The position numbers were made by a program, and so were the translations under genes. Positions 16,515 through 63,352 of a stretch of DNA of 64,000 nt are shown here, piece by piece. The number at the start of each line of letters is the position of its first letter. Position 1 is the stretch's first letter. Origin of the DNA: Lysobacteraceae bacterium. GTDB taxonomy: Bacteria; Bdellovibrionota; UBA1018; JAGTJX01. The notes below the pieces were generated by a model, which searched no databases, was not told the DNA's origin, and worked only from the letters and a program-made list of their open reading frames with translations. The stretch is taken from NCBI GenBank assembly GCA_023657465.1, contig JAGTJX010000004.1, forward strand, positions 154,904-218,903. Reading direction: 5' to 3'.

Positions 16515-16554
16515 TTGACAACATATAATATATTAGGCATAATATATTATATGT
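16515..16554 (+). promoter_or_regulatory. Sigma70-like promoter with an overlapping 15-bp-arm palindromic operator; leaderless start of the XRE gene
   Basis: TTGACA at 16515-16520, 17 bp, then CATAAT at 16538-16543; the ATG at 16551 falls at the predicted +1. The perfect inverted repeat is ACATATAATATATTA-ggca-TAATATATTATATGT at 16521-16554. Confidence 0.55.
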
Positions 16555-17054
16555 TTGGAGCTCAAATTCGAGAGCAGAGAAAATCGATGAAATTGAGCCA
16601 GAGTGCTCTCTCAAGCCTCTCAGGAGTGAGTGTGCCAATGATCCAGCTCATAGAGTCTGAGAAGGGGAACCCTTCGATCAAGACATTGGTCATGATCTTA
16701 GATTCTCTCCACATGAAGTTAGTATGTAAGGAAGAAAAATTTAATTGGGATCGGTTTGCTAGGCATACAGCTCTACTTTATGAGCAAGGGACAGTCGAGA
16801 GAGCTTTCTGTACTGAGCAAACCCTAGTGAGTTGCCTCATTGCCGCAGGTGAAACCCTTGCTAAAGAAAAAGACCAGAGGAAGAAAGAAGCCTTGGAAAG
16901 TACCCTCTTGGCTCTTGAGTTGTACTACCCTGATTTCTATAGGCAGCTACTAGTTGAATCTTCAGCTTTAAAAAAACTATGTGCTTTCTCGATTTCTGGT
17001 CGACATATCAAGTTGAAGCGAATCGCTTTAGAGAGACTGAAGGACTACCTCTAG
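16551..17054 (+). CDS. XRE-family HTH transcriptional regulator with a C-terminal domain of unknown function
   Basis: N-terminal HTH_3 (QIREQRKSMKLSQSALSSLSGVSVPMIQLIESEKGNPSIKTLVMILDSL). The track ORF begins at a TTG at 16515 inside the operator, so the ATG at 16551 is preferred. Its stop overlaps the next start (TAGATG). Confidence 0.7.
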   Translation: MFGAQIREQRKSMKLSQSALSSLSGVSVPMIQLIESEKGNPSIKTLVMILDSLHMKLVCKEEKFNWDRFARHTALLYEQGTVERAFCTEQTLVSCLIAAGETLAKEKDQRKKEALESTLLALELYYPDFYRQLLVESSALKKLCAFSISGRHIKLKRIALERLKDYL

Positions 17055-17549
17055 ATGAAGACACTGAATGCAAAACTACTAGAGCAGTTTTTAAACCTAG
17101 TCATTAAAAAGCTTGAAGGTGAGTGGGTGCTACTAGGTGGCACTCTTATTCCCGCATTAGGGATCGAATATAGACAGACAGTCGATATTGATTTTGTACC
17201 TGCAGGAGAGATGACCAATAAAACATCATTGGAACTCATGGGCTTGGCAGAGAAGCTGGGAATTGCCGTTGAGTCGATCAATGCATCGGCGGGATTCTTC
17301 TTAAAGAAGATTCCAGATTTCTCTGAGCGTTTAGTCAGCCTGAAGAAGTCCAAGAGTTGCACAATCTACCGACCTACTTTGGATCTCTACCTTGAATTGA
17401 AACTCAATCGCGCTTCTCCCACGGATCTCACGGACTGCATACAATTAATCCAATATTGTAAGAAAATGAAACTAGCTGAAGAGTTAAAGTCTGGGAGCAA
17501 GTTTTTAGAGAAAAAAGACCGTAGAGATATTTTGAGATACTTTGGATAA
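17055..17549 (+). CDS. Minimal nucleotidyltransferase-fold protein (AbiEii/MenT-like motif)
   Basis: Motif LLGGTLIPALGIEYRQTVDIDFV fits the NTase signature hGG-x14-[DE]hDh. It is translationally coupled to the upstream XRE gene. Confidence 0.5.
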   Translation: MKTLNAKLLEQFLNLVIKKLEGEWVLLGGTLIPALGIEYRQTVDIDFVPAGEMTNKTSLELMGLAEKLGIAVESINASAGFFLKKIPDFSERLVSLKKSKSCTIYRPTLDLYLELKLNRASPTDLTDCIQLIQYCKKMKLAEELKSGSKFLEKKDRRDILRYFG

Positions 17550-17550
17550 T

Positions 17551-17646
17551 CCCTACCGGATTAAATGGACAATACTGAATAGAGTGATGGCAGCGTAGTA
17601 GTGAGTGTTCTTTCATAGAAATGTAAGTCCGTCTCTGACGGTTTTT
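17551..17646 (+). repeat. Intergenic repeat family copy R1 (core plus hairpin), ending in a Rho-independent terminator
   Basis: Core TACCGGATTAAATGGA at 17554-17569, then ...GTTCTTTCATAGAAATGTAAG, then CCGTC-tct-GACGG at 17629-17641 followed by TTTTT. It starts 2 nt after the NTase stop. Confidence 0.8.
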
Positions 17647-17783
17647 CACATCGTCTCAGTGATTGCGCTTGCGTATTGCCTCAAAAGTAAGTGTTACTTA
17701 TGAGCAGTAGGTCAACAGGAGTGAGAGTTAATGTAACTTAATTTAATTTAAAACACTGACAGCAAGAAACAATGTTAAAAAAT

Positions 17784-18533
17784 TCATCGTTTGATTTGCG
17801 ATACAACAATGTACCCTCGCGCTTTTGAAACACCCTTGTCTTGTGTATTCATTCCCTTAAAAAAGGTTTCGGTAGAAACCCAATAGGGTGTGTACCACTC
17901 GCGATCAACGTCTAAAACTAGTACTTTTTGTGAAGTTTTGTCATAAGCAGCGATCGGAGAAATATGACCCGCGGGTTCCGATTCCCCAGTAAAAACGGCT
18001 TGATCAAAATTAGCAATAATAAAGTCTTGATCTGTTTTCTCGTTCTCAGTGAAGTCACTTAGATAACCGTTTATAGCGCCTTTTTCTAGTGAATCGACGT
18101 GTATAACTTTAACTTGGTATTGATCTGGGAAATAAATATTGAGTGCTTTTTTTAAAACTTCTGAAAATCGATCCATTGAAAAGCATTTGTGATCTTTCAT
18201 GGCTTGGATCCATTCAGGGTCATTAACTTTTGCAACGATATCGGCTTGTGTAATGTTTTTTGTTTCAGAATCTAAGTCTTGCTTATTTTTAAGGGCATTG
18301 AAGATCGCCGCCATAGAGGCCGTTTGACACATGTTTTCTCCCTGCGGAACATAATGAAAAATCATAGCCCAAAAATCAGGAGCATGATTTTTTTGCAAAT
18401 ACTTATGATCGTCAATGGCTCTTAGAGTTTCAGGTGCGTATTTAGATTTAGAAAAAGCTTGGGGAGCAAGAGTGAAAGCTATTATTAGTAATGGACTAAA
18501 AAAAACGCTTGTTTGTTTTGATACGTATTTCAT
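17784..18533 (-). CDS. Secreted phytochelatin-synthase-like (papain-fold) peptidase
   Basis: Signal peptide plus a conserved PCS catalytic triad context: Cys in QGENMCQTASMAAIFNAL, His in PAGHISPIAAYD, Asp in KVLVLDVDREWYTPYWV. This closely parallels the cyanobacterial PCS-like enzyme. Confidence 0.8.
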   Translation of the reverse strand: MKYVSKQTSVFFSPLLIIAFTLAPQAFSKSKYAPETLRAIDDHKYLQKNHAPDFWAMIFHYVPQGENMCQTASMAAIFNALKNKQDLDSETKNITQADIVAKVNDPEWIQAMKDHKCFSMDRFSEVLKKALNIYFPDQYQVKVIHVDSLEKGAINGYLSDFTENEKTDQDFIIANFDQAVFTGESEPAGHISPIAAYDKTSQKVLVLDVDREWYTPYWVSTETFFKGMNTQDKGVSKARGYIVVSQIKR

Positions 18534-18566
18534 AGCTGTAAATTTTACTCATATTTCTTGGCATTG

Positions 18567-18738
18567 CAATACCAATACTCCCAATAAGCGGTTTAGTAAG
18601 TTTGGCGTCTTTTAAAACCCAGTCTACCGGATTAAATGGAAAATACTTCATAGAGGTTGGGTGGTTGAATTTGGAGCGTTAATCCATAGAAATGGAAGCG
18701 CCCGAAAGTTATTTACCTTCAGGCGTTCGTGATTTTTT
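18567..18738 (+). repeat. Intergenic repeat family copy R2 (5' module plus core plus hairpin)
   Basis: CCAATACTCCCAATAAGCGGTTTAGTAAGTTTGGCG is followed by the core TACCGGATTAAATGGA at 18625-18640, then GGGTGG..GGAGCGTT..TCCATAGAAATGGAAGCGCCCGAAAGT, ending GATTTTTT. Confidence 0.8.
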
Positions 18739-18760
18739 CATTAATATGAGCAGTTGGTGC

Positions 18761-19690
18761 TCAGGGTTTCACATCTTCTCCAATTTCCAGAATTTCAGCA
18801 TCATAGATGGTCTCGCTCATTAGATCGGGAAAATTGGTGATTGAATTACCGTATTCCTTGGAGCCAGGTAAGACACGTACTTGAATCTGTTGATCAGCGA
18901 CTTGGCTCGAAAGTTCGTAATCACGAATCAAAACTTTAACCATGTTTATTTTGGAGTCCGGCATTGGAAATGTTAAGTCTAACTTGTGTTGTGAGCCATC
19001 CAATTTAGGTAGCGTATTCAGCTGTTGGTTATAAAAATACTCATTAAGATCCTTTTTGTTTTGTTCAGAAAGATCTGCAGTTAAATGGATTTCAGAAACC
19101 GGCGGTAAGATACTACTTAGCATTTGTTTCCAAGTATCCGGTAGGAAGCTTTGGTCTGATTTCAGGTCAAAGGCAATAAATAGTTTCTCACCGTTGGTTC
19201 CCGTTAATTTATTCACACGAAGATGATCAATTAAGCCACTTGTACCTGGCTCGGGGAGGGAAAATAAAAGCATCGTGAGAAACGTGTAATTTGTTTTACC
19301 ATTTTTCTTAAGGAGCCCATTAGTTTTCTGTTTTTCCCATTCAGCAATTTTAGTGTTCTGAGTTTCAATGGTATTTGTCTGAGTGACTTTGGCAGTACAC
19401 TGGCCGACTGGAGGTATGATGTTTCCAGGATTTTTTGGATCTACGCCGTGAATATAACCTTCGTTTGTATTATCCTCTAAATCATCTTTTAGATCAGCAA
19501 CGCGAGTGGAATCGTTCATTGGACGTTTATCATTAATGTTGATCCTGTTCAAAACGTCATAGGGCAATTGAAGAAATATGGGTGACTCGCATTGAAAGTT
19601 TTTGAATTCAGTCTTTTGATGAACTTTGACGTGTTCCCCAGCATTTGCTGTGAGCGATACAAGGCATGTAAATATTAATACCTGCTTCAT
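18761..19690 (-). CDS. Secreted hypothetical protein
   Basis: Signal peptide MKQVLIFTCLVSLTANA (start moved to M6 of the track ORF). I recognise no domain. Confidence 0.5.
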   Translation of the reverse strand: MKQVLIFTCLVSLTANAGEHVKVHQKTEFKNFQCESPIFLQLPYDVLNRININDKRPMNDSTRVADLKDDLEDNTNEGYIHGVDPKNPGNIIPPVGQCTAKVTQTNTIETQNTKIAEWEKQKTNGLLKKNGKTNYTFLTMLLFSLPEPGTSGLIDHLRVNKLTGTNGEKLFIAFDLKSDQSFLPDTWKQMLSSILPPVSEIHLTADLSEQNKKDLNEYFYNQQLNTLPKLDGSQHKLDLTFPMPDSKINMVKVLIRDYELSSQVADQQIQVRVLPGSKEYGNSITNFPDLMSETIYDAEILEIGEDVKP

Positions 19691-19783
19691 AAAAATTCCT
19701 TCCACTCTAAATCCAATGGTTACCGAGCATTGTCCGAACCAAAACTCTTCAAATTAACAAGCAAATCAAACGTGTCTAATATT

Positions 19784-19806
19784 GCTCTATAGAGCACATA
19801 ATGTGC
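19784..19806. promoter_or_regulatory. Overlapping palindromes GCTCTATAGAGC and GCACAtaaTGTGC upstream of brnT
   Basis: Perfect 12-bp and 5+5 palindromes sit in the divergent intergenic region 19706-19953. They are candidate operator sites. Confidence 0.3.
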
Positions 19807-19918
19807 CAGGTTTTGCAGAGGTCTTTAGTGGGTAAAATTGAGAAGCAGGTTTGAACCCTGCCTATACCTAGAACAGCTGTCCAATGATTAGTCGGTCCAA
19901 ATATGCTTTATATGCTGC

Positions 19919-19947
19919 TTGACAATTGAGTACAAAAGGCACACAAT
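19919..19947 (+). promoter_or_regulatory. Promoter of brnTA (leaderless)
   Basis: TTGACA at 19919-19924, 17 bp, then CACAAT at 19942-19947; the ATG at 19954 lies 7 nt after the -10. Confidence 0.45.
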
Positions 19948-19953
19948 AGATTC

Positions 19954-20223
19954 ATGAGCTTTAAGTGGGATGAGGCTAAGAACAAGAAGCTAGCCGCTCA
20001 GGGCAGACCGGGATTTGAATTTTTCGTAGAGGCCTTTGATGAAGGGCTTATTTATTTCGAAGGCGAGAATACAAAACGTCCGGGACAGGGTGTTTTTGTC
20101 GTGATCATTAATGAGTATGCTCACGTAGTGCCTTATGAAGACAGAGGAGATCATCTCTTTTTAAGAACACTTTATCCATCCCGTAAGTGGCAGGTAGTAT
20201 ATGAAAAGGAGCAGAAGAAATGA
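19954..20223 (+). CDS. brnT: BrnT-family (DUF497, RelE/ParE-fold) toxin
   Basis: FKWDEAKNKKL...FEFFVEAF at the N-terminus and LFLRTLYPSRK at the C-terminus match DUF497. Its stop overlaps the next start (ATGA). Confidence 0.75.
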   Translation: MSFKWDEAKNKKLAAQGRPGFEFFVEAFDEGLIYFEGENTKRPGQGVFVVIINEYAHVVPYEDRGDHLFLRTLYPSRKWQVVYEKEQKK

Positions 20224-20531
20224 AAAATGCGAATAAAAAGACTTTAGCTGGATATGATCCAAAAAAAGTTAAGCTTTCTCGTGATGAGCAAGAGTTTGAA
20301 GACAACCTTGTGATCGCTGATTATTCTTCTAAGAGCTCAAAATCTGAACGTATGAACATTCGTTTGCCAGAAGAGGACTTGCTCAAGTTACAAAAGCTAG
20401 CGCTCAAGCATGGACTTCCCTACCAAACCTTAGTGGGCTCAGTGATTCATCGCTACGTTACTGATCAGTTGGTGGATTTAGAGGAAGCCAAAAAAATCCT
20501 TGCTGCGCCTCCTGCTAAAAAGAGAGCTTAG
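20220..20531 (+). CDS. brnA: BrnA-family antitoxin (RHH-like)
   Basis: MNIRLPEEDLLKLQKLALKHGLPYQTLVGSVIHRYV matches the BrnA consensus. Confidence 0.75.
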   Translation: MKNANKKTLAGYDPKKVKLSRDEQEFEDNLVIADYSSKSSKSERMNIRLPEEDLLKLQKLALKHGLPYQTLVGSVIHRYVTDQLVDLEEAKKILAAPPAKKRA

Positions 20532-20535
20532 ATTT

Positions 20536-20627
20536 TTACAGGAAATAACGTTCCAAACTTTGAAGCTGGTTTCTATTAAAGAATTGCCAATATTCCCATT
20601 AAGCTTTTTAGTTGATTTGGCGCTCAA
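20536..20627 (+). repeat. Intergenic repeat family copy R3 (5' module only)
   Basis: AAATAACGTTCCAAACTTTGAAGCTGGTTTCTATTAAAGAATTGCCAATATTCCCATTAAGCTTTTTAGTTGATTTGGCG is near-identical to 58812-58875 and related to segments of R2 and R5. It starts 5 nt after the brnA stop. Confidence 0.7.
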
Positions 20628-21488
20628 CTACTTCTTCCGGATTTCTTTGTAATAACCCTTTTCATAAATCTTCATGATCACTCTTTCCGTGAGAAGGGTG
20701 TCGAGACCTTTGCCACCTTGTTCGCGGATCATTTTGCGAGCCTCACTGCTACTGCCAGGCAACACAGATTCATCTTGAATGAAGATATCAGGCTTCGTAG
20801 AATCGTTGTTCTTGTATTGTACAGACTTACCATCGGTAGAGCGTGTGTAGCCTGCGAGAAAATCTGCAGGAAGCTTGGTGCTCACATCGAGAGTCATTGC
20901 AGTCACATCACCTCTAGGAATGAGCACCCAATGGGTAAGCGCGAAGAGTTCCTTCCAGTTTGGCCAAGTCGTAATACTGTTTAAAACATCCGTGCCCGCA
21001 ACCCAGAACAGATTCCTGGCACCGTTGGGATAAATTTCATTCAATCTCTTCAAAGTTTTGGAAGTGTCTTCGAAGATCTTCTCTTTGTATTCAAGATCAG
21101 ATGGACAGAGGTGGAAGACCTTAGCGGAGAGCTCTACCCATTCAGCACATCCATCAGTGGTGATATTGAATTCACTGTAAGGGATCTCTTCTAGCTTTAG
21201 AATCTGTGGCATGTCTTCCATAGCAAGTTTTGTGAGTTCGAGGTTCACGCCATTATTCTCTGATTCTTTCTTATAAGGCATCGCAACCATGAGAGTGCTC
21301 TCAAAGAAGTCTTCTCTGTGCATGAGTCTAGTAATCAGACGTAGATGTGACTTCGTCGGAGGATCGAAACTTCCTCCGAAAATAACATGAGTTTGAGAGG
21401 GAGCATCAGCTAGAGATGATGCTTTCTTAGGTATTGAGCTACAACTGGAAAGCGAAATGATGAGAAGTAAAAAATTTATTTTAGCCAT
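20628..21488 (-). CDS. NadD-family (cytidylyltransferase-fold) nucleotidyltransferase paralog with an N-terminal lipoprotein signal peptide
   Basis: Motifs IFGGSFDPPTKSHLRLI (HxGH region), WVAGTDVLNSITTWPNWKEL and IFIQDESVLPGSSSEARKMI all align to NadD. The N-terminus MAKINFLLLIISLSSC has a lipobox LSSC, and no alternative internal start exists. Confidence 0.65.
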   Translation of the reverse strand: MAKINFLLLIISLSSCSSIPKKASSLADAPSQTHVIFGGSFDPPTKSHLRLITRLMHREDFFESTLMVAMPYKKESENNGVNLELTKLAMEDMPQILKLEEIPYSEFNITTDGCAEWVELSAKVFHLCPSDLEYKEKIFEDTSKTLKRLNEIYPNGARNLFWVAGTDVLNSITTWPNWKELFALTHWVLIPRGDVTAMTLDVSTKLPADFLAGYTRSTDGKSVQYKNNDSTKPDIFIQDESVLPGSSSEARKMIREQGGKGLDTLLTERVIMKIYEKGYYKEIRKK

Positions 21489-22333
21489 TGTCTTACAGGT
21501 TCAACCCAAGCGTAGATGATGAAAAACCAAAACGACATGCGAGCAATGAGATCCCATCGCTTAGTCCTTAAATAGAGAAATGCGAAGAAGAGATGAAATG
21601 CTACTTGAGTCGTAGCAACAGGAATCCACCATCCCGTAAGTATCGATAATGCAATCATTACGGTAGAGATCAGAATCATAGCAACCCAAGTGCGTTCTGC
21701 ACCGATGAGTGAATGATAGTTCTTCAAGATCGAGTGACTGTGAGGATCGAGATTCTTCACGAGTTCTCTATTCATGAGTGTGAGTGCAAATATGCCACCG
21801 ACACCGATGATTTTTTCTTCGTTGATCATCGTCGGTTGAAACGCCGCCACAGAGAAGAGAGTGATCGGAAACAAAACACAATGATCTAAGAAGGAGTGAA
21901 TGAAGGGATGTCCTGAGAGAATGTGTCGGAGGAAATAGTTTTTACCCGCGATTCCCATCCAGGCACCCATCGCTAGGAGAGCGAGTCCAGCAGTAGAAAA
22001 CTCAAGAATGAAAAGGACGATGCCGAAAACCATAAGCCCCGCCCAGCAGAACCAGCGCGCAGCCTTAAGGTCGTTGAGTCTCACAATGCTACGAGCGAGT
22101 GGTTTCTGATGTTGGGTGCGTTGAACGTCTTGGAGATAGTCCCTGGTATCGATCTGTAGCCTAGCTAGAAAAAGAAAAAGCGTAATCCCAATCACCGATA
22201 TAATCGTTTCGGGAATTCCCATCGGGCTCAATTGGAGTCCAGCTCCAGTTAAAACGAGGCCTGCAATGAGGGGAATTTGCTCTTGGAGCGGAAATCGCTT
22301 AATGATGTACCGAGTCCAAGGTTTCACAGTCAC
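21476..22333 (-). CDS. Polytopic membrane protein, possibly a UbiA-family prenyltransferase
   Basis: About 8 TM segments and an Asp-rich motif IDTRDYLQD (DxxDxxxD) after TM2. Its GTG start is uncertain. It overlaps the start of the downstream NadD-like gene by 13 nt, suggesting an operon. Confidence 0.4.
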   Translation of the reverse strand: MTVKPWTRYIIKRFPLQEQIPLIAGLVLTGAGLQLSPMGIPETIISVIGITLFLFLARLQIDTRDYLQDVQRTQHQKPLARSIVRLNDLKAARWFCWAGLMVFGIVLFILEFSTAGLALLAMGAWMGIAGKNYFLRHILSGHPFIHSFLDHCVLFPITLFSVAAFQPTMINEEKIIGVGGIFALTLMNRELVKNLDPHSHSILKNYHSLIGAERTWVAMILISTVMIALSILTGWWIPVATTQVAFHLFFAFLYLRTKRWDLIARMSFWFFIIYAWVEPVRQWLK

Positions 22334-22341
22334 TTAATTTT

Positions 22342-23370
22342 ATGAGTATTTCTGCAATGAATCAAGATTTTTGGATAAAAGACGGAAAACCTGCACTCTT
22401 ACTCGCTCCGATGGAGGGTGTAACTGACGGTCCGATGAGATCGTTTTTCTCTGAAACACAGGCATTTACCCACTTAGTGACTGAATTCCTCCGAGTGAAT
22501 GACTCTCTCTACGGTGATCATGTGTTTCGTAGACACGCACCTGAATCTTCCAATGAATTCCGCACGAGATATGGAACTCCCGTCATTCTGCAGCTACTCG
22601 GTGGCGATGCTCAGAGATTAGCCGAGAACGCAGAAGCTGGAGTGAAGTGTGGAGCACGAGCAATTGATCTGAACTTCGGATGTCCTGCTCCTACTGTGAA
22701 CAGACATGATGGAGGCGCGACTCTGCTCAAGTATCCCGATCGCTTAAAAAATATTGTGAGGACTGTGAGAGATGCAATCCCAGCGCATATTCCCGTGTCC
22801 GCTAAGATGCGACTCGGTTGGGACAATATCAATGATGTGGATCGAAACTTCGATGCACTCATTGAAGGTGGAGTAAGCTCAGTCACCATTCATGGTCGCA
22901 CTAAGATTCAAGGCTACAAACCGCCAGCGTACTGGGAACCGATTGGTAGAATCCGTGCACGATCACCGATTCCAATTATTGCAAATGGAGAGATCTGGAC
23001 GTTTGAAGATTTTCTCCGTTGCCAAGATCAGACAGGATGCACGCACTACATGTTAGGTCGTGGAGCGCTTGCAGATCCAGGATTACCTGTGAGAGTCGCA
23101 AGAGCGCTAGGAATTGAGAGTGTCGCTTCAGTTCCGAAAGCTCAATTATTCGAAGATACCTATAATTCTCTCGACGCATCAGCATGGGTTCCACTCATCG
23201 AGAAGTTCTCGCGCGAGAGTGCCAAAATTTTTCCAAGTGAAGATTACACCGTCAGACGAGTGAAACAATGGATTAATCTCAGCCGCTTTGGCAGAAAGTT
23301 TCCATGGTTTGATCAGATTAAGACTGAGCTGAGTGTAGAATGTATTTTAAATAGGATGGTTGCTATGTAA
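22342..23370 (+). CDS. dus: tRNA-dihydrouridine synthase
   Basis: LAPMEGVTDGPMR FMN-binding motif and a TIM-barrel Dus family profile. Confidence 0.85.
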   Translation: MSISAMNQDFWIKDGKPALLLAPMEGVTDGPMRSFFSETQAFTHLVTEFLRVNDSLYGDHVFRRHAPESSNEFRTRYGTPVILQLLGGDAQRLAENAEAGVKCGARAIDLNFGCPAPTVNRHDGGATLLKYPDRLKNIVRTVRDAIPAHIPVSAKMRLGWDNINDVDRNFDALIEGGVSSVTIHGRTKIQGYKPPAYWEPIGRIRARSPIPIIANGEIWTFEDFLRCQDQTGCTHYMLGRGALADPGLPVRVARALGIESVASVPKAQLFEDTYNSLDASAWVPLIEKFSRESAKIFPSEDYTVRRVKQWINLSRFGRKFPWFDQIKTELSVECILNRMVAM

Positions 23371-23432
23371 CTATAAAAAAGATCAAGTTATGGCATTCAC
23401 AGAAGTCTGTGACCTAAGTAAGTTGATGTTTT

Positions 23433-24086
23433 TTAAACTTGGCCGTTCATCCAAGTGAGTTTGGCGTAGACGATCAATGTGATGAATAGGAAAATCCCAA
23501 TCCAACTCCAGTAAGCTTCCATGGCTTTGTTTTTCTTAGCGACTTTCAATGAGAAGGAAAATGCTTCTTCGTTTGAATTGAGATTACGTAGTGAGCGAAT
23601 GCTTGCAGGTTTACCAAACCCAACAAATCTAGGAACAAGTGAACAATACTTCTTGTAGGAGTCGCCGAAATATCCAATTAGTTTGGTTTCTTCAAATTCG
23701 ATGACGACGTCATAAACAAAAAAGAAAAACAGAGTGAGGGATACGCCAATGATCCAAGCATTCACAGAGACTACTCCACCCAGAGCAATGAGGAATGTTC
23801 CTAAGTAAAGTGGGTTACGTGTGAAGCGGTAAGGTCCACCGACAGAGAGGCTCGAGTCTTTGCGAAGGAAACCTGAAGCCCAGAATCTAAGTGTTGCACC
23901 CAAGAAGCCAATAGCGATGCCCAGTTTGTTTGGATATTGATTGGCAACTAATACTAACCAAACAGAAAACACCCATGCGATCAAAACGCGAACGCGACCT
24001 GAGAGGCTTTCGTTAACGATTTTTCGGAGTTGTTTGATAGCGGCCATAACCGTTCTGAATCTCCCAGATTTTGATGTGTCTGACAA
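23433..24086 (-). CDS. Isoprenylcysteine carboxyl methyltransferase (ICMT/PEMT)-family membrane methyltransferase
   Basis: GPYRFTRNPLYLG signature. The start is uncertain because the track ORF overlaps the upstream GT2 gene by 74 nt. Confidence 0.7.
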   Translation of the reverse strand: MSDTSKSGRFRTVMAAIKQLRKIVNESLSGRVRVLIAWVFSVWLVLVANQYPNKLGIAIGFLGATLRFWASGFLRKDSSLSVGGPYRFTRNPLYLGTFLIALGGVVSVNAWIIGVSLTLFFFFVYDVVIEFEETKLIGYFGDSYKKYCSLVPRFVGFGKPASIRSLRNLNSNEEAFSFSLKVAKKNKAMEAYWSWIGIFLFITLIVYAKLTWMNGQV

Positions 24087-24819
24087 CTCTGTAAACTGCT
24101 TCTAGTAAACTGATGATGACCCCGTGCATCCCGTCTCGGTAGGATTTGTAATAAAACAAATGCTTCAAAAACATGTGAGGAAACGAAAGGCTGAGCCTGA
24201 AAATATTAGTTCTGAGGCCACCTGCCACGTCTTCTTCTGCTTGAAGTGTAGAGTAACGATTGAGTTTGAATAAGAATTTGTCTGTATCCAAGTACAGGTC
24301 ATGATTGCAACCTTCTTGTAAGTAAACGGGCTCAGCAGGATGAACGAGGCGTTCGTGTATGCCACCTTCGAAGTGACAGTTTTTCTTGTTGTAGAAACGG
24401 TCGTGATAGATCGGGTTCCACATTCCGTATTTGATCTTCTTACCTAAGAAATACTCGAAGCGATAAATTCTGTAGCGAGTGTGCTCAGGGCCGCCATCAC
24501 GAGAACGCAACACTTCAATCTTAGCGATGAGCTCAGGTGTGCACTCTTCATCCGCATCTGCAAAATAAACCCAGTCATGTTTTGCAGCTTTAAGAGCTAC
24601 GTTTCTTTGTTCAGAGAATCCAAGCCAGGCTTGGGTGATGAAGCAAAGCTTGCCACTCCAAGCTTTTCCGGAAGCTTCACAGAGTTGTTTGGTTTTGTCA
24701 GTGCTCTCTGAATCTACTACTATGATCTCGTCTGCCCAAGTAAGAGACTGAAGGCATCGCTCGATATAGCGTTCTTCGTTACGAGTAATGATCAGAGCGG
24801 AGACAGGAGTTTTGCTCAT
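24013..24819 (-). CDS. Family 2 glycosyltransferase
   Basis: SALIITRNEE...VVDSESTD...DADE GT-A fold motifs. The start was moved to MSKTPVS at 24819. Confidence 0.75.
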   Translation of the reverse strand: MSKTPVSALIITRNEERYIERCLQSLTWADEIIVVDSESTDKTKQLCEASGKAWSGKLCFITQAWLGFSEQRNVALKAAKHDWVYFADADEECTPELIAKIEVLRSRDGGPEHTRYRIYRFEYFLGKKIKYGMWNPIYHDRFYNKKNCHFEGGIHERLVHPAEPVYLQEGCNHDLYLDTDKFLFKLNRYSTLQAEEDVAGGLRTNIFRLSLSFPHMFLKHLFYYKSYRDGMHGVIISLLEAVYRVVRHIKIWEIQNGYGRYQTTPKNR

Positions 24820-24823
24820 GAGT

Positions 24824-25921
24824 TTATGTAGTGACTTTCCAGAATGCAGTGAGGATCTCGGTTGCAATGAGGAGAACGACGATCGTTTCAAGAATGAGGC
24901 TTCGTCCTGCGTGTACTTCAGCACTTAAGAGTTCTGAAACCCTGGCCATGAGATCCATCTTCTGAGTCACAGATTCTTGCCAGTCTCTGATTCTAAACTT
25001 GGCTGAAGCTCCGCGGAAAATAGTTGCGAGATAGAAGTCACCCACGACTTTAAGCGAGTTATCGATTCGCTCGATGAATTCTGAGAATTCGATAAACCTA
25101 GTGCTCGCTTCACGTGCGAGCTTCGAGAAGCTAGATTTGAAAATACTTCCTCTTGTCTTCTCAATTTCATCGTAGAGATCATAAAGTCTATCGTCGAGTA
25201 GATCGTCGTAGTATCGCATCTCCATCATTTGAGTGAGTGCGAATTCGAGAACTTCAGGGACTTCCTTCTTGCCTGAAGGTTCGTATACAATTGCGCTATT
25301 CCAATCGATGACTGCAAGATCATCAGCTGAATACTGGTAAACAGAGTCGAGAATCGATTGCTTGCTCTTCTCAGATGGTTTGAAATTATTCTCACCCATA
25401 ATGAGTGAAGGGATATCCACTTGATTGAGAAGATCAGAAGCTTGTTCAATGCCCTGTACTTTTTCTAGGAAGTAGATGATGTAATCTTCGAACTGATCCC
25501 AAGTGCGTGGTTTCTGAAGAGCAGGCTTCAGCATCTGAACGAGATCTTTGGATTTGTTTTTGGCGATCTCATCGATGGTTTGGTCAGACTCAAGATGTGC
25601 TGAGTACTCTATGAGCTTAGACCACTGAGTTCCTGGAATAATCGGAATTTGGAAAATCAGAGAGAGAACACCGTAGTCCCAAATCTTAGCGTAAACTTCT
25701 GATCTGATGTTCTGGCCTAGAAAGTTAAAGTCGATCTCCTGAATATTGAGAATCACTGGAGCGTTTTTCATCATGAGGGCATTACGAGGCCCTTTTTTGA
25801 GTTTGAGACGTTCGTTACTGATGGCTTCACTCAAGATCTTCTCAACGACCGAGAGGTTGACCTCTTCGGCAATATCAAATACTCGGTAAATGAGGATGGA
25901 TCCTTTTTCGACTGCGATCAT
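24824..25921 (-). CDS. Hypothetical protein (possibly RMD1/DUF155-like), C-terminal TM helix
   Basis: Protein-like ORF of 365 aa with no confident motif. Confidence 0.35.
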   Translation of the reverse strand: MIAVEKGSILIYRVFDIAEEVNLSVVEKILSEAISNERLKLKKGPRNALMMKNAPVILNIQEIDFNFLGQNIRSEVYAKIWDYGVLSLIFQIPIIPGTQWSKLIEYSAHLESDQTIDEIAKNKSKDLVQMLKPALQKPRTWDQFEDYIIYFLEKVQGIEQASDLLNQVDIPSLIMGENNFKPSEKSKQSILDSVYQYSADDLAVIDWNSAIVYEPSGKKEVPEVLEFALTQMMEMRYYDDLLDDRLYDLYDEIEKTRGSIFKSSFSKLAREASTRFIEFSEFIERIDNSLKVVGDFYLATIFRGASAKFRIRDWQESVTQKMDLMARVSELLSAEVHAGRSLILETIVVLLIATEILTAFWKVTT

Positions 25922-48212: not shown

Positions 48213-48431
48213 ATGAGTCGTTCGAGAATGTTGTACATCGCTGCGCTTGTGATCGGTTGGGCTGGACTTTGGTTCGGTAGACAAATGCCTCATGTCGTTC
48301 ACAAGGATTTGAAATCGAGTAATAGAGCACTAGCGGCAACAATTCCTAGCGCTGAAGCGGCTAAGATCGCACCTCAAGTCGAAGCCATAGAATCTTTGCC
48401 ACCCCCCATTGAAGTTGAAAAAATTCGTTGA
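48213..48431 (+). CDS. Small single-TM hypothetical protein
   Basis: MSRSRMLYIAALVIGWAGLWFG TM helix. An AT-rich promoter region lies upstream; the call is tentative. Confidence 0.3.
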   Translation: MSRSRMLYIAALVIGWAGLWFGRQMPHVVHKDLKSSNRALAATIPSAEAAKIAPQVEAIESLPPPIEVEKIR

Positions 48432-48444
48432 TACCCTTATCCAG

Positions 48445-50010
48445 ATGATCTTGCACCGCTCCTTGGTATTAGTATCAATAACCACTCTCTTTTCGGCCTG
48501 CGCCACATTCACCAAATCTAATGAAGTAGCTCCATTTGCTACTCCTGGGAAAGTCATTCCAGTTGCGGCACCCGTAGTCACAGAATCTTCGGGTTCTACT
48601 GACATGGTCGTGCTCGGTGTGAAGCTCAAAAACACTTCTTTTGATTATCCAGTAGTCATCAACCCTTTGGTTGAAGAATGGGTAGAGTATTTCACTGGCC
48701 GTGGTCGTCCTCACTTCGAGAGATACCTTGAGCGCTCAGAGCATTTTATTCCTTATATTTTGCCGATCTTAAAAGAGAAGGGTCTCCCTGGAGATCTCGT
48801 GTATCTCGCAATGATCGAAAGTGGATTTCATAACCACGCTAAATCTCACGCGAGAGCTGTGGGTACTTGGCAGTTTATTTCTGCTACAGGTAAGCGCTAC
48901 GGTTTGAAGATCAATTGGTGGGTGGATGAACGCCGTGACATTCAGAAGTCTACGATCTCAGCAGGAATGTATTTGAAAACTCTGCACGATCTCTTCGATA
49001 GCTGGGAATTAGCAGCTGCAGGATACAATTCAGGTGAATCAAAAATCGATCGCGCGATCAAGCGCTACGGAACGAGAGACTTCTGGAAGTTAGTGAGACA
49101 TAATTATCTCCGTCCAGAAACCAAAAATTACGTTCCTAAGATCATGGCAGCAGCGATTGTTGCTAAGAACAGAACTCAGTTTGGATTCCCTGAGAAGTAC
49201 AACTCGGCTCCTTCACTCGACGATGAGGCTCCTTCAGTGGATGACGAAGCGAACTTGGCTACTGTTGTTCTCGACAAAGACAAAAACGATGACGGCGTAG
49301 AAGACGACGAATTCCAAGCAGAAGATCTCGCAGACCTTCTTGAAGACGATGAGTTTAATCTTGAAGACGAAGATGATCTTCTTGCTAAGGCACAAGTGGC
49401 TCAAGCACCAGCGCTCTCACTTCCTAATATGCCTCACGTGAGCAAAAAGGGTGTCTTAGGCAGCGAGACGATTCTCGAATTTGAGATCCCTTCACCAGCA
49501 GATTTGCAAACCATTGCAAACGCCGCGGGACTTTCTTATCTCAGCGTCAAGAACCTCAATCCTGAAGTCTTGAGATGGTGTACGCCTCCGTCAGAGAGAA
49601 CTTACAAAATCAAATTACCGGCGAGTGTGAAAGATCGTTTCTTATCGACTTACAATCATCCTGCTTATCCAAGAGTTGTGAATTTCATGACTCACAAAAT
49701 TAAACGTGGCGAGACCTTAAGTGGAATCGCTGGTCACTACAAAATCAAAGTAGACCCGATCAAAGAACTCAATGCAGGCCGCAGTTTTGGAGTGGGAACA
49801 GAGCTAGTACTTCCAATGCCTACCGATAGAAATCGTAGCTACGCAAGTTTAGATCTTTACGATGCACCTGAGCGTAGTAGACGAGGTCGTAGATCGTCTC
49901 GTCGTCGCGGGATCGTCAGAAGAACTATAAAAAAAAGTTACTCCATCGGAGCGAAGCAGCGCAAGGCCGCTAGGTTACGGTACGAACGCGTGACAGCAGC
50001 CGGTACTTAG
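48445..50010 (+). CDS. mltD: MltD-like membrane-bound lytic murein transglycosylase lipoprotein with an acidic linker and C-terminal LysM
   Basis: Lipoprotein signal [22 protein letters not shown] catalytic region ES...[10 protein letters not shown], an acidic repeat region, and a LysM ([14 protein letters not shown]). The track start at 48409 is a TTG. Confidence 0.8.
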
Positions 50011-55709: not shown

Positions 55710-55800
55710 ATAGTACCTGATTAAATGGAATTTCTATCTGGAAGAAGAGTGGGCGGAGTTGGGAGCGTTCTTTCATAGAAATGAAAACGCCCGAAAGTGA
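55710..55800 (+). repeat. Intergenic repeat family copy R4 (core plus hairpin)
   Basis: Core TACCTGATTAAATGGA at 55714-55729, then GGGCGG..GGAGCGTTCTTTCATAGAAATGAAAACGCCCGAAAGT. It is about 75-80% identical to R2 over ~95 nt. Confidence 0.8.
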
Positions 55801-57424: not shown

Positions 57425-57580
57425 ACCGGAAATATTTGCTAATATTTTCATTAAGCGTTTTAGTTGATCTGGCGGTTTTTGAAATCGAGTCTACCTGATT
57501 AAATGGACACTCTATAATAGAGGAGGAGTGTCTTTTAGTGAACGATACTTCATAGGAATTTGAGGGACTTAATGCCAATT
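57425..57580 (+). repeat. Intergenic repeat family copy R5 (5' module plus core plus degenerate hairpin)
   Basis: TTGCTAATATTTTCATTAAGCGTTTTAGTTGATCTGGCG is followed by the core TACCTGATTAAATGGA at 57492-57507, then ..ATAGAGGAGGAGTG..CTTCATAGGAATTTGAGGG. Confidence 0.75.
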
Positions 57581-57883: not shown

Positions 57884-58774
57884 ATGATGAGGCATTTGCT
57901 TATTCTAGTATTATCGCTTTCTAACGCTGGCTGTATAATACCGAGACTGAAAGGGAAATCTTCGTCATCTGTATCCACAACCTATTCCGCCACTCCTACA
58001 AGTTGCGATCGAACATCAACATCTATTTCTTGCCCCTCTGGATATGTAGCTGTGCCAGGAAATTCATGTTGGGGAATAAATGATTTTTGTGTAATGCAGT
58101 TTGAAGCCAAAAATGACGGTAGCGGCAATCCTTTTAGTCAGGATGTTACAATCCCTTGGAATTCAATTACTGCTGTTGCAGCAAAGGCTAAGTGTCAAAG
58201 CTTGGGTGCTGCGTACGATTTGATTTCAAACCCAGAATGGATGGTGATTGCAAGAAACGTTGAGAAAGTGTCGATAAATTGGTCGAGCGGTGTAGTGGGC
58301 TCAGGCTGCTTGATGAGTGGTAATTGCTTGAATGGAAATGCATGCAGCTATTCTACAGGTACCTCTGACTTCGGTCCTGTTGCTGGAAGAAATTCTAAGG
58401 CATCTCTTACTCTAAGTTCAGGAAGTTTAATTTGGGACTTTTCTGGAAATCAATGGGAGTTTGTCGACTGGTATCCAGGCTGAGCGCTCGACTTTGGTCC
58501 CACCAGTTGCCCGACAGGATGGATCGAGTTTCCTGCTGCGTTAGCTGCATGCGCAGCTTTAGTGTTTGATGACGTTATGCCAGGTAACCCATCCAATCAG
58601 CTTGCATCGACTTATGACTCCACTTATAGTCTTGGACAATTTACTGGTGGCCCTGGTGGCGCTTATCGAGGAGGTGGGTTTGGTTATTCCAACTCAGGGG
58701 TTTATGCATTGGCAATGGATCATGGAGGCGGAACCAACGCCAACTATGGATTTCGTTGCGTTTATCGCCCTTGA
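57884..58774 (+). pseudogene. DUF1566/FGE-sulfatase-fold (C-type-lectin-like) lipoprotein gene interrupted by one in-frame TGA
   Basis: Track ORFs 57884..58483 and 58562..58774 share a reading frame. The only stop between them is the TGA at 58481-58483, and the intervening codons (ALDFGPTSCPTGWIEFPAALAACAAL) are protein-like. Lipobox LSNAGC; motifs GNQWEFVDW and C-terminal GFRCVYRP are typical of the family. Confidence 0.5.
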
Positions 58775-58809: not shown

Positions 58810-58880
58810 CTAAATAACGTTCCAAATTTTGAGACCGTTTTCTATTAAGGATTTGCCAATATTTACAGTAACTTAGAAGA
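58810..58880 (+). repeat. Intergenic repeat family copy R6 (5' module only)
   Basis: AAATAACGTTCCAAATTTTGAGACCGTTTTCTATTAAGGATTTGCCAATATTTACAGTAACTTAGAAG is near-identical to R3 at 20543-20610. Confidence 0.7.
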
Positions 58881-62307: not shown

Positions 62308-62766
62308 TTAGTTAATTTCGGAACCCGATGGACCGTAGAATTCTGGTGGCACAACCACTCTACGAGCAGATTCCCAGAGGTTATCAATGCCGTAGTAATC
62401 GCGGATCGCACTTAAGAAAATATGCACAACGATATCGCCGTAATCCATGAGTACCCAGCGACCCTCTGAGCTGCCTTCGATAGTGAGGGCTTTCATTCCT
62501 TGTTCCTTCATCATTTTGTCGATGTTGGTGCAAAGAGCTTGAACTTGTTTTTCGTTTGATCCGCTACAGATCACGAAGAAGTCGGAGAATGCGTTCATGT
62601 CCGTTAAGTCTAAAATTTTGAGGCGTTCACATTTCTTGTCGATCGATGCTTTGGCGCATGCGAGTGCCTTGAGTAATGATCGCTCATGCTCAGGTGGGTA
62701 AGTGAATGGTTTGCCTTCTTTAGTTGTAATTGTCGTCATACTCATGAGATCAGATCTTGGTACCAT
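62308..62766 (-). CDS. rsfS: Ribosomal silencing factor RsfS (Iojap)
   Basis: Iojap-family core (ILDLTDMNAFSDFFVICSGSNEKQVQAL...VVHIF). Confidence 0.85.
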   Translation of the reverse strand: MVPRSDLMSMTTITTKEGKPFTYPPEHERSLLKALACAKASIDKKCERLKILDLTDMNAFSDFFVICSGSNEKQVQALCTNIDKMMKEQGMKALTIEGSSEGRWVLMDYGDIVVHIFLSAIRDYYGIDNLWESARRVVVPPEFYGPSGSEIN

Positions 62767-63352
62767 AGAGGTGGTGCTTCATCAAGCAGTCTTTAACACG
62801 CTGCGAAGTCATTTTTTCGTTAATTTTCCCTGTTTTTTCAATGTCTTGGCGAACCTGACTCGACGAAATCTCGGGGGATTCTGTTTTATAGAAGATGAGC
62901 TCTGTACCTAATCTCAAGCCATAGTGGTTCTGGCCACTAAAGGGATGTCCCTCTCGTTCAAACACCACCCAATGACAGAGCTTCAAAACCGCTGGGAAGT
63001 GATCCCATGAATCAATCTGATTCCACTGATCGCTACCCACGCACATCGTTAGAGGCGATCCGGCAGATCGAAGCTCTTGGAGGGTTTCCCAAGTGGTGGT
63101 TCTCATCTGTGTTGAGGCAGCTCGCTTCACTTCAATATCTCTTACAGAGATTCTAGGATCTAATCCCTCAAACGCTGCACGAGCGAGTTCCAGGCGCACA
63201 GAACCTGCAGTTGAAGTTGTTTTATTGAGATAGGGCTGACCTGTAGGGATGATCCAGAGTTCCTTGAAGTTGAATCTCTCGAGTAGTTCCTTAGCTAAAA
63301 ATTCATGACCTAAGTGTGGAGGATCAAATGTTCCACCGAGAATGGCGATCAC
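62750..63352 (-). CDS. nadD: Nicotinate-nucleotide adenylyltransferase
   Basis: ILGGTFDPPHLGH motif. This is the canonical cytoplasmic copy, sitting in the conserved obg-nadD-rsfS-rlmH block. Confidence 0.9.
   Translation of the reverse strand: MIAILGGTFDPPHLGHEFLAKELLERFNFKELWIIPTGQPYLNKTTSTAGSVRLELARAAFEGLDPRISVRDIEVKRAASTQMRTTTWETLQELRSAGSPLTMCVGSDQWNQIDSWDHFPAVLKLCHWVVFEREGHPFSGQNHYGLRLGTELIFYKTESPEISSSQVRQDIEKTGKINEKMTSQRVKDCLMKHHLYGTKI

Follow-up and report, generated by a model that had tools for sequence, protein, structure and literature searches.

NadD and its NMNAT relatives are textbook cytoplasmic enzymes of nicotinamide adenine dinucleotide (NAD) synthesis, essential to the cell and used as drug targets. 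Bacterial NadD proteins (NCBIfam equivalog TIGR00482; PDB 1kam/1kaq, 3e27 and 1k4k) have a Rossmann-like nucleotidyltransferase fold and carry the elements GGxFDP, PYK, GxD...W and SSxxxR. Here, we describe a gene whose product has this fold and these elements and which, unlike bacterial NadD, also begins with an N-terminal lipoprotein-type signal that would place it in a different compartment. The gene lies in a stretch of 64,000 nucleotides of a metagenome-assembled genome (contig JAGTJX010000004.1, positions 154,904 to 218,903; hereafter the window), where the interval 20628..22333 is made up, with nothing left over, of two overlapping open reading frames (ORFs) on the minus strand, both found where the initial annotation of this DNA had placed them. 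The upstream frame (21476..22333) encodes a UbiA-like membrane protein, and the downstream frame (20628..21488, 286 aa from an ATG) encodes the NadD-like protein. What is new here would be a relocated, remodeled and rare NadD-fold paralog with a lipoprotein-type signal, a proposal that is still unproven.

The handling of pyridine and flavin nucleotides outside the cell membrane is known from other protein families. In Haemophilus influenzae, the lipoprotein e(P4), a nicotinamide mononucleotide (NMN) 5'-nucleotidase, and the periplasmic NAD pyrophosphatase NadN feed PnuC and NadR. The protein of the window would resemble these by functional analogy only, as an exported and partly lipid-anchored way of handling NAD and NMN for salvage. 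In contrast, e(P4) and NadN are hydrolases with unrelated folds (a HAD-type acid phosphatase and a 5'-nucleotidase), and no pnuC, nadR or nadN was seen adjoining the NadD-like gene. Similarly, the flavin-trafficking lipoprotein ApbE/Ftp works in the periplasm and uses pre-formed flavin adenine dinucleotide as group donor without ATP. With its different fold and chemistry, and with no sequence relationship to the NadD-like protein, it could serve as a mechanistic precedent only.

Our data support the assignment of the NadD-like product, on the basis of its sequence and predicted fold, as a diverged NadD paralog that is present in addition to the canonical gene. The protein matches Pfam CTP_transf_like (PF01467) with an E-value of 5.7e-10 and TIGR00482 with 81.2 bits (E 9.4e-23, in two stretches), its NCBIfam matches are nearly all NadD equivalogs, and NadD structures in the PDB were also matched by sequence search. 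When its AlphaFold2 (AF2) model (pLDDT 60) was compared with the PDB using Foldseek, the best 49 matches were all NadD (E 9e-8 to 1e-4, TM-score of about 0.6 on the target), and NMNAT-like proteins were also the top matches of this model among viral models. The canonical nadD, which the initial annotation had correctly reported, is found at 62750..63352 (minus strand), where the gene order is obg-nadD-rsfS-rlmH, and encodes a 200-aa protein with the motif GGTFDPPHLGH. It scores 119.2 bits against TIGR00482, over the curated cutoff of 112.45 bits, matches the NadD structures of the PDB down to an E-value of 1e-15, and covers housekeeping NAD synthesis. The two proteins are only 25% identical, and, unlike canonical nadD, the NadD-like gene is found outside the obg-nadD-rsfS operon.

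Most of the residues expected in a NadD enzyme have been retained in this paralog, and the differences are concentrated in one motif and in two insertions. The nucleotide-binding motif G38-G-S-F-D-P-P-T-K-S-H48 (21345..21377, minus strand) is identical in all three sequences that cover the region; it departs from the canonical GGxFDPxHxGH, and does not fit the pattern GxFxPxHxGH, by having Thr for the first His and Ser for the Gly, that is, T-x-S-H for H-x-G-H. Thus, the claim of the initial annotation that all NadD hallmark motifs are present stands for GGxFDP and for SSSEAR and fails for the pair of histidines, since TKSH holds one His. The C-terminal motif S246-S-S-E-A-R251 (20736..20753, minus strand) is the counterpart of the NadD motif ISSTxxR, and its residues S246, S247, S248 and R251 are invariant and, in the alignment, also common to canonical NadD. 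In total, the elements TKSH, PYK, GTD...W175 and SSSEAR are invariant among the NadD-like sequences. Canonical NadD has neither of the two insertions, each about 35 aa long. The first of these spans residues 103-140 (21069..21182, minus strand) and carries a Cys pair, C114 and C128, that is invariant in the alignments, could form a disulfide and would fit an oxidizing compartment, while the second was modeled with confidence as a small beta-sheet. Between orthologues, pN of the NadD-like gene is 0.14-0.19 and pS 0.66-0.78. Since synonymous sites are saturated while pN is low, the gene is functional; the UbiA-like gene likewise has a pN far below its pS, and both genes are therefore under purifying selection.

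What sets this paralog apart is its N-terminus (MAKINFLLLIISLSSC), for which the initial annotation had proposed a lipoprotein signal. We used our own re-implementations of two lipobox patterns, a strict G+LPP-like one and one modeled on PROSITE PS51257, and not SignalP or LipoP. The window protein satisfies both. Its signal peptide MAKINFLLLIISLSS and the lipobox Cys16 (TGT at 21441..21443) together occupy 21441..21488 on the minus strand, with the layout MAK / INFLLLIISLSS / C16: the n-region is positive, the h-region spans 12 residues and the lipobox reads L-S-S-C. After Cys16 comes a tether rich in Ser, Ala and Pro (SSIPKKASSLADAPSQTH). Both full-length orthologues (P0002 and P0003) have preserved a signal with its Cys: the Cys is invariant and the hydrophobic stretch retained in all three proteins, each of which satisfies the PS51257-like rule. 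Moreover, identity between orthologues is 25-47% over residues 1-17 and 73-79% over the mature part, as is typical of the evolution of signal peptides.

The signal also cannot be bypassed, because none of the three NadD-like genes has an in-frame ATG, GTG or TTG between it and GGSFDP; it must therefore be translated. This rules out a start codon that skips the signal, and with it the suggestion that the N-terminal extension is untranslated, which the initial annotation had named as one result that would overturn its claim. In addition, an h-region of 12-14 residues is too short for a transmembrane helix. The products of the neighboring genes, which are signal-bearing and secreted, were also counted in favor of export. 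Taken from these sequence features, the NadD-like protein is very probably exported, and it is probably, with somewhat less assurance, lipidated as well. Two more ORFs of the window (57884-58483 and 48409-50010) have lipoprotein-like N-termini, one of them MMRHLLILVLSLSNAGC..., and therefore this genome appears to use signals of the same short type.

Proteins of the UbiA superfamily (PF01040; for example AfUbiA, 4tq3-4tq6; the DGGGP synthase 7bpu; and the membrane phosphoribosyltransferase 8j8j) provide the closest described relatives of the upstream gene product, which is predicted to have nine transmembrane (TM) segments and a cytoplasmic N-terminus and, like them, carries an Asp-rich motif where TM2 ends. 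The ORF (21476..22333, minus strand) has 285 codons from its first GTG; we favor the second GTG (22327), two codons further on, which is backed by the orthologues and by the NCBI gene call and gives a 283-aa protein starting with MKPW. Unlike known members of the superfamily, the window protein has no direct family match in Pfam, NCBIfam or PDB sequence searches, and PF01040 was not matched even at E<=10 by any of the four clade members. However, an exhaustive profile search with this clade collected 203 cluster representatives (clusters at 50% identity), mostly of about 280 aa and aligned end to end. Of 38 aligned members of this subfamily, 27 match PF01040, many of them above the Pfam gathering cutoff of 34.2 bits, and hhalign joins the window clade to the subfamily with a probability of 99.9% (E 3.9e-36, 286 columns, about 21% identity). 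The best five PDB matches of its model (pLDDT 58.7) in Foldseek also all belong, with weak scores, to the superfamily (8j8j, 7bpu and 4tq3-6; E 0.1-0.3, TM-score of about 0.46). Thus, on profile evidence, the initial annotation was right to call this product UbiA-like, and we regard it as a divergent UbiA-superfamily protein of an uncharacterized subfamily.

The topology and motifs of this protein bear on what the two genes could do together. Its nine hydrophobic segments are arranged with the N-terminus inside, with 20 Lys and Arg residues on the inner side and 1 on the outer side, all periplasmic loops have 6 residues or fewer, and both motif loops are on the cytoplasmic side. The first Asp-rich motif, I61-D-T-R-D-Y-L-Q-D69 followed by KPLARS (22127..22153, minus strand), is in the K/R-rich loop 2-3. 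It contains the DxxDxxxD that the initial annotation had pointed out (D62-x-x-D65-x-x-x-D69), with an Ile where the canonical NDxxDxxxD has N/D, and corresponds to MDExKDYxKD...RPLPRG (DExxDxxxD) in the wider subfamily. The second Asp-rich motif, DxxxD in loop 6-7, is absent, and the window protein has NRELVKNLDPHSH in its place; the corresponding motif of the wider subfamily, YExxRKLDPxAH, with a single Asp and a Glu, is also unlike the canonical one.

In the wider subfamily (loci L004-L056 and L060; for example L018:4378-15113 and L060:3285-13586), the UbiA-like gene belongs to a conserved and apparently undescribed cluster, for which our literature search returned nothing relevant. Its order is one or more AMP-binding enzymes, in some cases a transporter of the MFS family, the UbiA-like protein, a protein of about 910 aa with PPDK_N, Rph and PEP-utilizer domains, and a GNAT protein, after which P450, DUF3419, HMG-CoA reductase, DAG-kinase-like, MFS or ABC/FtsX genes variously follow. 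In some proteins (P0025, P0067, P0112 and P0141), the AMP-binding and UbiA-like domains are joined in one chain, and the cluster is also present in Bdellovibrio sp. HCB-162 (CP178861.1). The cluster appears to encode the biosynthesis of a lipid or isoprenoid. The locus of the window resembles this cluster in that its UbiA-like protein, for which the subfamily is the nearest wider family, is likewise encoded beside an enzyme of possible adenylate chemistry. In contrast, it lacks the AMP-binding and PPDK_N partners and is found in the context MJ0711_N - GT2 - PEMT - dus, and its partner is a NadD-fold protein predicted to be exported, whereas that of the cluster is a cytoplasmic adenylate-forming enzyme.

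In the window, the stop of the UbiA-like gene and the start of the NadD-like gene overlap by 13 nt (ATGGCTAAAATAA, 21476..21488, minus strand). In the two orthologous loci (L002 and L003) the overlap is 4 nt, so that an overlap as such is kept in all three. This arrangement suggests that both genes are co-transcribed and translationally coupled. A candidate sigma-70-like promoter, TTGATT-17-TAAAAT (22337..22365, minus strand), is found just 5' of the UbiA-like start and within the 5' end of the divergent dus; it is a pattern match only, with 9 of 12 consensus positions in the scan.

Beyond these loci the association quickly disappears. A word-index search found only three relatives for each of the two proteins, those of the NadD-like protein being metagenomic; scans of the GTDB species representatives with both alignments, and of JGI metagenomes with the NadD-like alignment, added none at the sensitivity used. 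The window, L002 and L003 are the only full-length contexts in which the NadD-like gene was seen, each time directly 3' of the UbiA-like gene, and the organisms concerned are close relatives (67-79% identity). In contrast, in L001, whose UbiA-like protein (P0008) is 47% identical, the UbiA-like gene abuts uvrD with no NadD-like gene, none is found beside the UbiA-like gene in the P0009 loci (L057-L059), and none of the 53 metagenomic loci of the wider subfamily has a NadD-like ORF. The co-occurrence of the two genes, which the initial annotation had suggested examining, is therefore limited to three loci, and a general association is ruled out. Comparison with L001-L003 also shows a block prone to indels that separates the UbiA-like gene from uvrD and has the NadD-like gene at its edge. 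Because of this position, the NadD-like gene looks like a recent accessory gene that joined an existing transcription unit at its 3' end.

How could a NadD-fold protein work at such a place? Our tentative preference, which we hold at a little less than an even chance, is that it is an exported, lipid-anchored protein that handles pyridine or adenine nucleotides outside the cytoplasm. The first gene of the transcription unit would produce a UbiA-superfamily intramembrane prenyltransferase with its active site facing the cytoplasm. The NadD-like product would leave the cytoplasm through Sec and most likely receive its lipid at Cys16, with a catalytic domain of about 250 residues on an 18-residue tether, either periplasmic or exposed at the cell surface. 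This domain retains the elements that contact the adenine nucleotide (T45-x-x-H48 and S246-S-S-x-x-R251) and the substrate (PYK and G-T-D...W175), with W175 as the possible stacking Trp for a pyridine-type base. The periplasm of diderm bacteria has no ATP pool, and canonical nadD covers the housekeeping reaction; the paralog therefore most likely works on pre-formed (di)nucleotides. It could bind, cleave or interconvert them outside the cell membrane, along the axis between NAD or nicotinic acid adenine dinucleotide (NaAD) and NMN or nicotinic acid mononucleotide (NaMN), with a role in salvage or processing instead of biosynthesis. Where the domain is located, what it acts on and which way the reaction runs are, like its cleavage and lipidation at Cys16, inferences.

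Several points weigh against this proposal. The NadD-like protein scores under the TIGR00482 cutoff that canonical NadD exceeds, and the replacement of two HxGH residues, the Gly and the first His, may have changed or abolished its catalysis. Its AF2 model is of poor quality, with a pLDDT below 50 in the Cys-bearing insertion; the low confidence of both models in the pair is due to alignments that held only four sequences. Cleavage and lipidation at Cys16 are read from patterns rather than from a dedicated predictor, and the orthologues P0002 (LLSC) and P0003 (STAC) have non-canonical lipoboxes that fail the strict pattern, which only the window protein fits. With only three relatives of the NadD-like protein, the arguments from conservation rest on a shallow tree. 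Finally, we know of no donor nucleotide available in the periplasm, and in the literature we found no exported or lipoprotein NadD or NMNAT that could serve as precedent.

Some of these points would be explained if the protein no longer had a catalytic function and were an exported nucleotide-binding or structural lipoprotein, in which the NadD fold is kept for ligand capture or another role. The degradation of HxGH to TxSH, the score below the equivalog cutoff, the two large insertions and the lack of ATP in the periplasm would all be expected of such a pseudoenzyme. However, the other catalytic and ligand motifs are invariant, and Thr is accepted as the first residue of (H/T)xGH in the superfamily, for example in PPAT. 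The whole domain is also under purifying selection, which would be expected of a binding protein as well as of an enzyme, and we consider the loss of activity unlikely. One could also speculate that the protein is a second cytoplasmic NadD/NMNAT whose N-terminal stretch is a non-exported membrane tether or a non-functional signal. All core NadD elements are present, as this would require, and the lysines at +6 and +7 after the Cys leave a small charge bias across the hydrophobic stretch. In contrast, the h-region is too short to span the membrane, the positive n-region and invariant Cys form a signal-peptide-like context in all three sequences, and alternative initiation cannot skip the signal. 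The conserved Cys pair would fit an oxidizing compartment, and a canonical nadD is already present in the genome. Thus, the predicted signal argues against a cytoplasmic role for the NadD-like protein in the reaction of NaMN and ATP to NaAD and pyrophosphate, and a second cytoplasmic enzyme seems very unlikely to us.

The initial annotation had instead suggested that the two genes form a dedicated pair that makes or modifies a lipid- or prenyl-linked nucleotide. In such a pathway, the UbiA-like protein would build a polyprenyl-(phospho)-linked compound that is flipped across the membrane, and the lipoprotein would add, remove or exchange AMP or another nucleotidyl group in the periplasm. This idea draws on the position of the NadD-like gene, found only directly 3' of the UbiA-like gene and overlapping it in all three loci, on the consistent linkage or fusion of the wider UbiA-like subfamily to ATP-using activating enzymes (AMP-binding and PPDK_N/PEP-utilizer), and on the structure that the UbiA-like model matches best, if weakly, the membrane phosphoribosyltransferase 8j8j. 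However, the UbiA-like gene does without a NadD-like partner in its nearest outgroups (L001 and the P0009 loci) and in 53 of 53 wider-family loci. The adjacency is known from close relatives only, so that the three co-occurrences may reflect nothing more than shared ancestry. No feature sets the UbiA-like proteins that have the partner apart from those that lack it, and there is no flippase gene in the transcription unit. Moreover, since the active-site loops of the UbiA-like protein are cytoplasmic and its periplasmic loops very short, the two catalytic sites would be on opposite faces of the membrane. We therefore find no positive support for a shared pathway; the conserved overlap leaves it a low probability, and we regard it as quite improbable.

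The source genome is labeled Xanthomonadaceae bacterium by NCBI (locus tags KA715_13570/13575). This label is probably wrong, given the 44.7% GC of the window and the named relatives of the UbiA-like protein, which are only Bdellovibrio spp. The same taxonomic hints point, weakly, to a Bdellovibrio-like predator as the source and to an action on host or prey nucleotides, as the initial annotation had envisaged. Such a predator would have access to the ATP and NMN of its prey, which would make forward synthesis possible. It is then tempting to speculate that, inside the invaded cell, a lipid-anchored and active NadD/NMNAT uses NAD, or ATP together with pyridine mononucleotides, from the prey, and either harvests or destroys prey NAD or nucleotidylates a polyprenyl-linked product of the UbiA-like protein. 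We think this scenario decidedly unlikely; if true, it would describe the first extracytoplasmic member of the NadD/NMNAT family.

A conserved, signal-bearing paralog would imply either that nucleotides are handled in a compartment free of ATP or that the fold has been repurposed, and both outcomes would widen the known roles of the family. In a predator, the NadD-like protein could bear on the use of prey nucleotides. In addition, its UbiA-like partner leads to a sizeable uncharacterized subfamily of 203 clusters at 50% identity, whose biosynthetic gene cluster is conserved.

The surroundings of the gene pair are as the initial annotation had outlined them in position, between a repeat and dus, and differ from it in composition. 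The supposedly AT-rich region has a GC content of 45.0% over the gene pair versus 44.7% for the window, and the low-GC stretch is the adjacent 17.7-20.6 kb (38.6%). On one side, dus (22342..23370) is divergent to the UbiA-like gene and is the first gene of a segment (22342-25921) that also has an MJ0711_N-domain gene, a GT2 glycosyltransferase gene and a PEMT/ICMT-like methyltransferase gene nearby. At all loci of the clade it neighbors the UbiA-like gene, divergently in the window and L001-3 and co-directionally in the P0009 loci (26% identity); from this we cannot tell a functional linkage from a merely conserved gene order. On the other side, a 60-nt intergenic repeat (20543..20602) lies directly 3' of the NadD-like stop, with a second copy, 83% identical, at 58812..58871. 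RNA fold prediction gave nothing significant for this repeat, and neither Rfam families nor tRNA genes were found in the window, so that a reading as riboswitch or other RNA element was dropped. Similarly, PADLOC matched neither of the two proteins, and a defense-system reading was dropped.

The 60-nt repeat belongs to one of three families of short intergenic repeats in the window (60, 32 and 34 nt; 81-91% identical within this set), the others being found at 17553-17584, 18624-18655 and 57491-57522, and at 17593-17626 and 55753-55786. These repeats cluster at the borders of a variable low-GC block and recur at about 55.7-58.9 kb. The block itself (16515-20531) is shared only in part with the orthologous locus L002. 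It contains genes for an HTH protein and an AbiEii/DUF6036-like nucleotidyltransferase (16515-17549), a signal-bearing phytochelatin-synthase-like protein (17784-18533), a signal-bearing protein of 314 aa to which no function was assigned (18761-19705), and a small overlapping gene pair (19954-20223 and 20220-20531), the second of which is weakly similar to CopG-type antitoxins.

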